Source: Rhodospirillales bacterium
Lineage (GTDB): Bacteria > Pseudomonadota > Alphaproteobacteria > Rhodospirillales > 2-02-FULL-58-16
DNA length: 49,635 bases
Direction: 5' to 3'
Assembly: GCA_036012725.1 (NCBI GenBank)
Contig: DASCPW010000066.1
Coordinates: 1 to 49,635, forward strand
Part shown: piece by piece, positions 5,320-26,710 of the stretch
Position numbering within the stretch: the first letter of the stretch is position 1
Layout: every line of letters begins with the position of its first letter
Notes under the pieces: model-generated
What the model was told of the DNA's origin: nothing
Databases searched by the model: none
The model's input: only the letters and a program-made list of their open reading frames with translations
Program-made: the position numbers and the translations under genes

Positions 5320-6261
5320 ATGCCCCCCCTGCGCCTAGTTTTCATGGCAAGCGCCGACTTCGCGCTACCCGCCCTCGGCGCCCTGCTGGAGGCCGGGCAC
5401 CAGGTCGCTTGCGTCTATTCGCAACCGCCCCGGCCGGCCGGACGCGGCCACCGGCAACGGCCGATGCGGGTACATGCTTTCGCCGAGGAAAAGGGCATTT
5501 CGGTGCGCACGCCGAAGTCTCTGGACGGCAAGGACGAACAAGCCGCCTTCAGGGCGCTCGCCATCGACGCCGCCGTCGTCGCCGCATACGGCCTGATCCT
5601 GCCGGCGCCCATCCTCGAGGCGCCCCGGCTCGGCTGCCTCAATATTCATGCCTCGCTGCTGCCGCGCTGGCGCGGGGCGGCGCCGATTGAGCGGACGATC
5701 ATCGCCGGCGACGAGCTATCCGGCGTCACCATCATAAAAATGGATGAAGGCCTGGACAGCGGGCCGATGATCTTGGCCGAGAGCGTTCCTCTCACCGCCG
5801 AGACGACGGCCGGGGGCTTGCGCGATACCTTGGGCGGGCTCGGTGCGCGGCTGATCCTCAAAGCCCTGGACGGCCTCAACGAAGGACGCCTGACAGCGGC
5901 GCCGCAACCGCCGGAAGGCGTCACCCATGCCCCTAAACTGGACCGCCGCGAAGGCCGCTTGTTGTGGTCGCGGCCGGCGGTGGAACTGGAGCGCCTGGTC
6001 CGGGCGCTGACCCCTCGGCCCGGCGTCTGGTTCGAACATCAAGGGGAGCGCGTCAAGGTGCTGGCGGCGCAAGTTGCGGCGGTGGCGGCAAAAGCCCCTC
6101 CCGGCACCGTTCTCGACGACCGGCTCGCCGTCGCCTGTGGCGGGGCGGCGGAACAAGGGGCGCTCAGGCTTGTCCGGGTGCAGCGCGCCGGCAGGAAAGC
6201 GGCGGCGGCCGAGGATTTCGTGCGCGGCTACCCTTTGCCGCCAGGCAGCCGGCTATCGTGA
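5320..6261 (+). CDS. fmt: Methionyl-tRNA formyltransferase
   Basis: VYSQPPRPAGRG, AAYGLILP, NIHASLLPRWRGAAPI, MDEGLDSG. Start ATG 5320. Confidence 0.95.
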   Translation: MPPLRLVFMASADFALPALGALLEAGHQVACVYSQPPRPAGRGHRQRPMRVHAFAEEKGISVRTPKSLDGKDEQAAFRALAIDAAVVAAYGLILPAPILEAPRLGCLNIHASLLPRWRGAAPIERTIIAGDELSGVTIIKMDEGLDSGPMILAESVPLTAETTAGGLRDTLGGLGARLILKALDGLNEGRLTAAPQPPEGVTHAPKLDRREGRLLWSRPAVELERLVRALTPRPGVWFEHQGERVKVLAAQVAAVAAKAPPGTVLDDRLAVACGGAAEQGALRLVRVQRAGRKAAAAEDFVRGYPLPPGSRLS

Positions 6262-22871: not shown

Positions 22872-23714
22872 ATGGCGGCCAAGATCGCGCGCCGCGTCGC
22901 CGAGCTTCGCGCCCATGTGACGGCCTGGCGGGCCAATGGGCAAAGCGTCGGCCTGGTGCCAACCATGGGGGCCTTGCATGACGGACACTTGAGTCTGGTT
23001 CGCCGCTCCCTGGCCAGGACCGGGCGCACCATCGTCAGCCTTTTCGTCAACCCCAAGCAGTTCGCGCCGGGCGAGGACTTCGACACCTATCCCCGCGACG
23101 AAGCCGACGACGCCGGCAAGCTGGCAGCAATGGGCGCGCATCTGTTGTTCGCCCCGAAGGTGGAGGAAATTTTTCCCGATGGCTTCGCGGCCAAGGTCTC
23201 GGTGCCTGGCCTGGGCGACATCCTGGAAGGAGAGTGCCGCCCTGGATTTTTCGACGGCGTGGCGACGGTGGTTACCAAGCTCTTGCTGCAGGCCGGCGCC
23301 GACAGGGCTTTTTTCGGCGAAAAGGATTACCAGCAGCTGTTGATCATCAAGCGCCTGGTCGGGGATCTCGACATCCCGGTCGCAATCGAGGCGGCGCCGA
23401 CGGTGCGTGAGGCCGACGGATTGGCGCTCTCTTCGCGTAATGCTTACTTGAGCGAAGACCAGCGGGCCTGCGCGTCGGCGCTCTTTAGGACCTTATCAGC
23501 GATGGCCGAAGGCGCCGCCAAGGAGACGGACATCGCCGAGATGGAAAATTGGGCCGGTAAGGAGCTTTTGGACGGCGGTTTCACCAGGGTCGATTACATC
23601 ACCCTTCGCGACGCCGAAACCCTGGCCCAGTGGGCCGGCAAATCACGCCCCGGGCGGGCGCTCGCCGCCGCCTGGCTGGGCCGAACACGGCTCATCGACA
23701 ACGTCGCGGTTTGA
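22872..23714 (+). CDS. panC: Pantoate--beta-alanine ligase
   Basis: VPTMGALHDGH, FVNPKQF, FGEKDYQQ, DGLALSSRN, RLIDN. Confidence 0.96.
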   Translation: MAAKIARRVAELRAHVTAWRANGQSVGLVPTMGALHDGHLSLVRRSLARTGRTIVSLFVNPKQFAPGEDFDTYPRDEADDAGKLAAMGAHLLFAPKVEEIFPDGFAAKVSVPGLGDILEGECRPGFFDGVATVVTKLLLQAGADRAFFGEKDYQQLLIIKRLVGDLDIPVAIEAAPTVREADGLALSSRNAYLSEDQRACASALFRTLSAMAEGAAKETDIAEMENWAGKELLDGGFTRVDYITLRDAETLAQWAGKSRPGRALAAAWLGRTRLIDNVAV

Positions 23715-23739
23715 AACTTCGGGTTATTCGGGAACCAGC

Positions 23740-23761
23740 GCGGCTTCCTTTAGGAAGCCGC
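23740..23761. terminator. Hairpin between convergent panC and the Mms6-like remnant
   Basis: gcggcttcct-tt-aggaagccgc, a perfect 10-bp stem. No clear U tract. Confidence 0.4.
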
Positions 23762-23985
23762 CTCGGCAACCGCCTCTTCAAGTTCTGTGTCGCTCAATTC
23801 CAGATTCTGGCAGTGGCGGTACAACCCATACCCGGCGGCGGCAGCAGCAGCCCCCAAACGCCCAAGCCCAAGCCGAGCCCCAGGCTGAACCCGGTTCCCG
23901 TCCAGATGGTTCCGCCCGCCGCCGCGCCCTTGGCGGCGGTGGCGGCGGCGATGGTCTTGCCGCCCACCCTTCGGCCGTCAAACAG
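23750..23985 (-). pseudogene. Mms6/Mms5/Mms7-like GL-repeat small membrane protein, frameshifted
   Basis: GGKTIAAATAAKGAAAGGTIWTGTGFSLGLGLGLGVWG, then after a frame change near 23851 AAAAAAGYGLYRHCQNLELSDTELEEAVAEAAS* (TAA 23750-23752). The start is uncertain. Confidence 0.7.
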
Positions 23986-23993
23986 ATCCCTCC

Positions 23994-24022
23994 CTTGCGC
24001 CGGCGAAATTCCACGACATATT
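23994..24022 (+). promoter_or_regulatory. Possible RpoH (sigma32)-type promoter of clpB
   Basis: CTTGCG-N16-ACATATT about 95 bp upstream of clpB, a weak match to the alphaproteobacterial CTTGAA-N16-CCTATAT consensus. Confidence 0.35.
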
Positions 24023-24115
24023 AGGGAATAAGGCCTACAAATCGTAGGGGTTCCCATGGCAACCCATGGGCTTCATGGAGCCTTGCGGTCCGGTCGCCAA
24101 AAGGGTGGATGATCG

Positions 24116-26710
<2,595 letters not shown>

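Follow-up and report, generated by a model that had tools for sequence, protein, structure and literature searches.

In the window (i.e. the whole stretch of DNA analysed here, 49,635 nucleotides), positions 23735-23962 on the minus strand, between panC and clpB, very probably form a non-functional 3'-terminal remnant of mamD, which would make them the dead relic of a gene for the magnetosome, the membrane-enclosed magnetite organelle found in magnetotactic bacteria. The remnant consists of the last ~75 codons of mamD with the stop, and of ~17 nt beyond it, as delimited by blastn and by alignment to positions 196-437 of contig C304 of a genome of the same genus (G001). The first-pass annotation had offered descent from a magnetotactic ancestor as one explanation for an Mms6-like sequence at this place, and this explanation agrees with what was found, the remnant being homologous to the mamD of two mam-bearing genomes of the same genus (G001 and G002), as well as truncated and frameshifted. 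For the window's own genome (G000), the assembly is of the metagenome type and comprises 136 contigs with a total of 1.77 Mb; its completeness is 90.4%. The search for relatives, done with the 87-aa open reading frame (ORF) that overlaps the remnant, covered 41 genomes (G000 and 40 others), of which G003 belongs to the same family; the best matches outside G000 were long open frames in G001 (contig C304), G002 (C189) and G003 (C117).

The remnant is spread over two reading frames. At 23916-23851 the minus strand encodes GGTIWTGTGFSLGLGLGLGVWG (GGTIWTG...GVWG), and a second frame of the same strand continues with AAAAAAGYGLYRHCQNLELSDTELEEAVAEAAS up to a stop codon; both frames and their positions had been given in the earlier annotation and were reproduced. 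The first frame is part of the 87-aa ORF (23794-24057, minus strand), codon 48 of which begins at 23916, and which contains GKTIAAATAAKGAAAGGTIWTGTGFSLGLGLGLGVWG and then runs into LLLPPPGMGCTATARIWN and a stop, reading ...GKTIAAATAAKGAAAGGTIWTGTGFSLGLGLGLGVWGLLLPPPGMGCTATARIWN at its end. An ORF of 35 aa in another frame (23750-23857, minus strand) reads (M)GAAAAAAGYGLYRHCQNLELSDTELEEAVAEAAS, followed by a stop. The 87-aa ORF is a chimera of three parts: the upstream DNA of clpB supplies residues 1 to ~31, mamD supplies ~32-72, and the shifted frame accounts for 73-87; because the homology to mamD ends at 23962, its first ~31 codons are the upstream region of clpB read backwards. Relative to the parent gene, two pieces can be delimited. 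The first, GGKTIAAATAAKGAAAGGTIWTGTGFSLGLGLGLGVWG (23851-23964, minus strand), comprises the Ala-rich linker and the LG repeat and is identical to residues 268-301 of G001 MamD at 33 of 34 positions, while the out-of-frame acidic tail, AAAAAGYGLYRHCQNLELSDTELEEAVAEAAS plus stop (23750-23848, minus strand), is identical to residues 311-342 at 26 of 32 (81%). Once the frame is corrected, the four modules that had been reported (Ala-rich linker, LG repeat, transmembrane (TM) helix and acidic tail) are indeed present in that order, with the TM helix partly deleted.

At the level of protein families, the 87-aa ORF was recognised by three NCBIfam models, namely MamD (E 1.8e-8, 34 bits, model positions 241-280 only), Mms6 (E 1.3e-7, 32 bits) and MamG (E 6.5e-6), all of which cover residues ~32-72 and give scores far under their cut-offs. 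With curated cut-offs of 100 bits for MamD (NF040916) and 200 bits for Mms6 (NF040917), the ORF falls outside both families by score, and the same holds for the search of the whole G000 genome, in which the stub scored 32.4 bits for MamD and 29.7 bits for Mms6. Pfam gave no match for the 87-aa ORF, and for the 35-aa ORF only a sub-threshold match to GHMP_kinases_N (E 0.049), which is attributable to chance. The acidic tail is not of low complexity, and its counterpart is the C-terminus of G001 MamD (...GKTLAAATAAKGAAAGGTIWTGTGFSLGLGLGLGAFGPVLLGAAAAAAGYGFYRHRQDLEITDTELEEAVAEATS, followed by the stop codon). Judged on these sequence comparisons, the likeness of the stub to magnetosome proteins exceeds chance.

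The descent of the stub is best seen at the nucleotide level. Contig C304 of G001 encodes an intact MamD of 342 aa, which scores 329 bits on NF040916 (cut-off 100), and the 3' end of this gene is identical to 23735-23962 at 196 of 226 aligned bases, i.e. 86.7% without gaps and 80% with gaps. The blastn match to the mamD of a congener has an E-value of about 1e-59 over 228-244 nt. The stop codons align and the homology to G001 extends ~17 nt beyond them; the stub also matches positions 18-117 of contig C189 in G002 at 90% (100 nt) and contig C117 in G003 at 79%.

These results bear on the identity of the source gene, which had been described as Mms6-like. That description stands as far as the order of the modules is concerned, which is common to Mms6, MamD and MamG, but not as regards descent, for which the order of the HMM matches, the LG piece and the tail all point to mamD. 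Since the three proteins have a C-terminal module in common, the original match to Mms6 is explained. For the LG piece, all six MamD sequences compared (two from G001 and one each from G002, G003, G012 and G032) rank above all five Mms6-like sequences from the same genomes. For the tail, the best Mms6-like protein gave an E-value of 0.006, versus 5.7e-22 for G001 MamD (in a database of 11 sequences only). The Mms6-like proteins of the relatives (which include those of G002 contig C111, G001 contig C244, G012 and G031) are recognised as such, the one on G002 contig C111 having Mms6 as its best family with 72.7 bits. Taken together, the comparisons indicate that the source gene is mamD (Mms7), not mms6.

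The damage to the gene is considerable. Compared with the mamD of G001, the window is net 16 nt shorter at about 23856-23859 on the minus strand (gaps of 2 and 14 nt, in both pairwise and multiple alignment), which removes the ...FGPVLLG... part (AFGPVLLGA) of the TM helix. As 16 is not divisible by three, the acidic tail lies in another frame, and therefore the 'small deletion' and the 'adjacent frame' of the first-pass annotation, of which the former was correctly noticed, come down to a single event. In addition, ~265 codons at the 5' side of mamD and the start codon are missing, so that ~75 of ~340 codons are left and the full MamD architecture is not found in one frame. Sigma-70-like promoter and terminator patterns gave no site on either strand between 23500 and 24300, and Rfam gave no match at E <= 1 over 23600-24250. 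Ahead of the ATG at 24057 no Shine-Dalgarno sequence was seen by eye. Upstream of clpB the fit to a sigma-32-type promoter consensus, judged by eye, is imperfect. A perfect 9-bp palindrome, GCGGCTTCC-4 nt-GGAAGCCGC, is located at 23738-23759 and spans the old mamD stop codon; it is absent from the homologous sequence of G001 and was produced by clustered changes. There is no T-run behind it, so it is not a terminator pattern, and its fold z-score of -1.7 is not significant; it may owe its origin to templated (quasipalindrome) mutation or to chance. From this anatomy alone, it would seem that the stub does nothing now.

Comparison with the characterised proteins helps to place what is left. According to the available portion of PMC8833152, MamD (Mms7) of Magnetospirillum magneticum is a magnetosome membrane protein, a substrate of MamE and a negative regulator of the growth of the magnetosome membrane, with residues 1-270 in the lumen, a TM segment at 270-292 and a tail at 292-314. 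Relative to this topology, as far as it is set out there, the retained part of the stub fits the membrane anchor plus tail, with the anchor damaged. Like MamD, the stub has an LG repeat, a TM helix and a short acidic tail, preceded by the Ala-rich end of the lumenal part; unlike MamD, it retains only the small part of the codons given above, with a deletion in the TM segment, has neither a start nor a promoter of its own, and lies outside any mam context. Mms6 is described in the accessible part of PMC4900750 as a small protein associated with magnetite, which has an LG repeat and binds iron by its acidic C-terminus. The stub has the same order of modules (Ala-rich linker, GL/LG repeat, TM helix, acidic tail), but it differs in that the Mms6-like proteins of its relatives are more distant from it than every MamD compared, and in that its tail matches MamD and is out of frame with the LG repeat.

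The surroundings of the stub suggest how it may have come to its present place. It does not sit in a magnetosome gene cluster but between panC (22872-23714, plus strand; TIGR00018, 276 bits) and clpB (24116-26710, plus strand; TIGR03346, 1356 bits), and family searches also identified dcd and panB as flanking genes of the region. The homology to panBC of G001 (contig C292) and G002 (C179) stops at the panC stop codon (23714), after which 20 nt (23715-23734) have no homology to these two contigs or to G001 contig C304. The homology to mamD stops at 23962, and from 23963 up to 24115 follows the upstream (promoter/leader) region of clpB, which is ancestral to the genus, being 90% identical to the sequence upstream of clpB in G002 (contig C42) and, from 23963 onward, 80% identical over 110 nt to positions 5953-6062 of G001 contig C55. 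G001 and G002 stay alike past 23963, at which point the window turns to mamD. In all four relatives examined for this (G001, G002, G003 and G009), one and the same gene, of 382 aa, comes next after panC. In G000 this gene is found in contig C52 (from 25404), directly behind a histidine-kinase gene; in G001, G003 and G012 the gene next to this histidine kinase is a different one, which in G000 starts contig C29. Among the relatives of which the surroundings of panC or clpB were read, the adjacency of these genes is confined to G000, and the intact copy that had been envisaged between them was found in none.

Relative to G001, G002, G003, G009 and G012, G000 shows at least three breakpoints (contig C52, 24050-25403; contig C29, 196-1582; and 23714/23963 in the window), each exactly at the end of a gene (panC, the histidine kinase and clpB), and none of them showed an IS element. 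With this number of breakpoints, the rearrangement could not be reduced to one inversion or one deletion. The chromosomal part of G001 contig C244 was traced into G000 contig C34 in search of an 'empty site' of the cluster; the region is variable, and no clean site could be recognised in it. In G001, the copy of the clpB-upstream region (C55, 5953-6062) has a heavy-metal ATPase gene on one side and a transposase-like ORF on the other, and clpB itself gave no match by DNA search, which would reflect either a rearrangement or an assembly gap. In G002, an ORF of 119 aa (C42, 12773-13129, plus strand) is located directly upstream of clpB; it has an Ala/Lys-rich part followed by GISLGGLG, a TM helix, a Tyr-rich part and an acidic tail, a layout that recalls small magnetosome proteins. 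NCBIfam gave no match for this ORF, and G000 does not have it.

The events behind the stub may be pictured as follows. The ancestor of the genus would have carried mamD and a magnetosome gene cluster, after which illegitimate recombination and deletion during a rearrangement may have taken the 5' four-fifths of mamD, leaving the remainder as a scar; the 16-nt deletion would be later than, or simultaneous with, this loss. The identity of the stub to the mamD of congeners (87-90%) is similar to that of its core neighbours (88-90%; panBC 87.8%, clpB 90%), which fits vertical inheritance and not recent capture.

The arrangement was also retrieved from seawater. The stretch 23300-24500 is present in 20 metagenome runs from 10 studies, with 7 runs flagged as possible sources of the assembly, and contigs from four runs of other studies reproduce the junction exactly. 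In run X10, a contig of 997 nt corresponds to 23353-24349 with 0 differences and 0 gaps, and in X8 and X9 contigs of 620 nt correspond to 23730-24349. The junction is therefore not an assembly artefact: both junctions and the deletion were recovered in independent contigs with 0 differences. The comparison of metagenome contigs with the stub was made at a likeness of at least 90%, so that copies below 90% fall outside its scope. Among the contigs listed, one other kind was found on the stub (23859-23954; X8, X9 and X10), the flanks of which are, by eye, those of the intact mamD of G002; contigs with the intact mamD of the congener part from the window exactly before 23859. As this other contig continues into a G002-type mamD, a sister species that bears magnetosome genes co-occurs in the same seawater. 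The ratio of its depth to that of the G000-type contig was, by run, about 1.4, 1.4, 3.6 and <1, contig depths being a weak measure.

For the interpretation it matters what else G000 and its relatives contain. None of the 11 HMMs searched (Mms6, MamD, MamK, MamB, MamQ, MamA, MamO, MamP, MamE, MamM and MamH) gave a match over cut-off in G000; the matches below cut-off were the stub (MamD, Mms6) and generic paralogues (MreB, CDF, HtrA and TPR). In agreement with the first-pass annotation, no mam or mms gene besides the stub was found on the window's contig in these whole-genome searches. By comparison, seven families are over cut-off in G001 (MamD, MamK, MamB, MamQ, MamA, MamP and MamM, with MamO below it, in two pieces on two contigs) and three in G002 (MamD, MamK and MamH, with MamE below it). 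Counting G000, the family is represented by 15 genomes, of which five have MamK over cut-off (G001, G002, G003, G009 and G012), four MamD and three MamB. Of the 11 cluster-bearing contigs of G001, G002 and G003 (blastn), and of 889 ORFs from these genomes and from the loci of G012 and G032 (tblastn), only the stub and some housekeeping genes were closely matched in G000, the latter being the ones that share a contig with the cluster. A c-di-GMP signalling gene that adjoins mamD in G001 and G002 is absent from G000.

The contigs that bear the clusters of G001 and G002 measure 3-11 kb, and the set of G002 is only partly recovered. In G001 (contigs C122, C220, C154 and C304), the MamK family has two members over cut-off, and MamD genes are also two in number, of 342 and 360 aa, which means that parts of the cluster are duplicated in this genus. 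A repeat of ~70-100 nt occurs at the ends of the magnetosome-cluster contigs of the congeners (the ends of L023; L032, 5300-5600; L004, 33-116) and also in contigs C52 (51791-51960), C8 and C126 of G000, and is probably a dispersed repeat that breaks assemblies. In the complete genome G032 (contig C1, about 149,000-158,000), ~6 tandem copies of a ~1.4-kb unit, in which ORFs of 310 aa and 140 aa with identical starts are repeated, lie roughly 10 kb past mamB.

Loss of the entire magnetosome gene cluster by this organism is, on these data, reasonably probable, but this reading falls short of proof because G000 is 90.4% complete and the clusters assemble and bin poorly in the congeners. The stub could then be a stray partial duplicate, with an intact cluster (including its own mamD) present in the organism and simply not assembled or binned. 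Such an outcome, which we consider unlikely though it deserves to be taken seriously, is favoured by the incompleteness of the assembly, the short contigs and partial recovery of the clusters of the congeners, the duplication of cluster parts in the genus, and a G000 genome that is 0.2-0.5 Mb smaller than those of its congeners. It is opposed by the lack of any HMM match over cut-off in G000 and of any DNA or protein match to the cluster parts of the congener contigs, as well as by the metagenomes, where the only other kind among the contigs listed (four independent runs, at least 90% likeness) appeared by eye to be the mamD of G002. The presence of that intact, G002-like gene in the same seawater runs raises another thought, namely that the fragment was captured by recombination from a co-occurring magnetotactic congener instead of being inherited. 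The 90% identity of the stub to G002 over 100 nt and junctions that resemble illegitimate recombination would suit such a capture, yet a recent transfer should be closer to its donor than the flanking core genes are, whereas the identity of the mamD fragment does not exceed theirs, and the fragment also has private changes; capture is therefore regarded as improbable.

The remaining alternatives concern the nature of the stub itself. The first-pass annotation had considered a stand-alone Mms6-like iron-binding family, and the stub might accordingly be a working small gene for an LG-repeat membrane or iron-binding peptide, possibly with a programmed -1 frameshift, given that the 87-aa ORF is open from its ATG, that the four modules follow in order after frame correction, and that the sequence is identical in the contigs of four runs. 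However, the first ~31 residues are antisense to the upstream region of clpB, which does not code for protein in G002, the relatives lack an ORF of this kind at this place, and neither a promoter-like site nor (by eye) a Shine-Dalgarno sequence was found for the ATG at 24057, while the break in the frame is explained by a deletion relative to the parent gene, and the TM helix of the stub is partly gone. In a wider collection of genome contigs, 599 pattern matches yielded no relative of the 87-aa ORF by tblastn. As the relatives whose surroundings were read have no copy at this position, the ORF lacks its own start and ribosome-binding site, and no related ORFs were found, the proposed family did not hold up, and a working gene is highly improbable. 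Even less credence is given to an assembly chimera, or to a sequencing error that would have produced the frameshift in an otherwise intact gene. The G000 assembly is of the metagenome type, with 136 contigs, and a related mamD occurs in the same samples, which could invite such errors, but the contigs of X10, X8 and X9 match both junctions and the deletion without a single difference, and restoring the frame would still leave ~265 codons of mamD absent. The reading that we retain is thus that of a dead mamD relic.

In cultured Magnetospirillum, spontaneous loss of the magnetosome island and deletions in it are known. The island is described as unstable in the abstract of PMC7908775. The present case resembles such island loss in that a truncated magnetosome gene is found at a recombination junction in a genome otherwise without mam genes, and differs from it in that it concerns an uncultured marine lineage, with a fixed variant in many metagenomes and no IS element at the junction. 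For the marine Rhodospirillales family 2-02-FULL-58-16, the accessible text of Uzun et al. 2020 (PMC7449369) lists magnetosome gene clusters for three MAGs and one genome, and gives a marine origin for the non-magnetotactic members as well. An 88% match of G001 MamD is to 'Rhodospirillaceae bacterium MAG_05422_2-02_14', which appears in that text as one of the cluster-bearing MAGs. The mixture of cluster-bearing and cluster-free genomes in the family is thus already published; 'mamD' has 0 occurrences in the main text of that paper, and its accessible passages do not mention a gene relic either. Among the titles and abstracts listed for remnants of magnetosome genes in non-magnetotactic genomes, none concerned natural relics. 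What the present case adds is a physical mamD relic in a genome where no mam genes could be detected; in kind, it is a pseudogene fragment of a known family.

This finding is of modest value, confined to the evolution of magnetotactic bacteria, and it involves no new mechanism. It also calls for some caution, in that an ORF with an LG repeat and an acidic tail outside a magnetosome cluster does not equal a new iron-binding family. To account for the scattered distribution of magnetotaxis, one usually invokes either horizontal transfer or loss of the gene cluster on repeated occasions, and the case for each comes mostly from trees. As a dead relic, the stub would be direct physical evidence that an ancestor of this lineage had a magnetosome gene, which was later destroyed by rearrangement. 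It is marginally probable that we are dealing with a widespread marine population of magnetotactic ancestry that has shed its whole cluster while its sister species keep theirs, with the stub as the scar. If this is true, the stub would be a rare direct footprint of the loss of magnetotaxis in the open ocean, by which the event could be dated and tracked.
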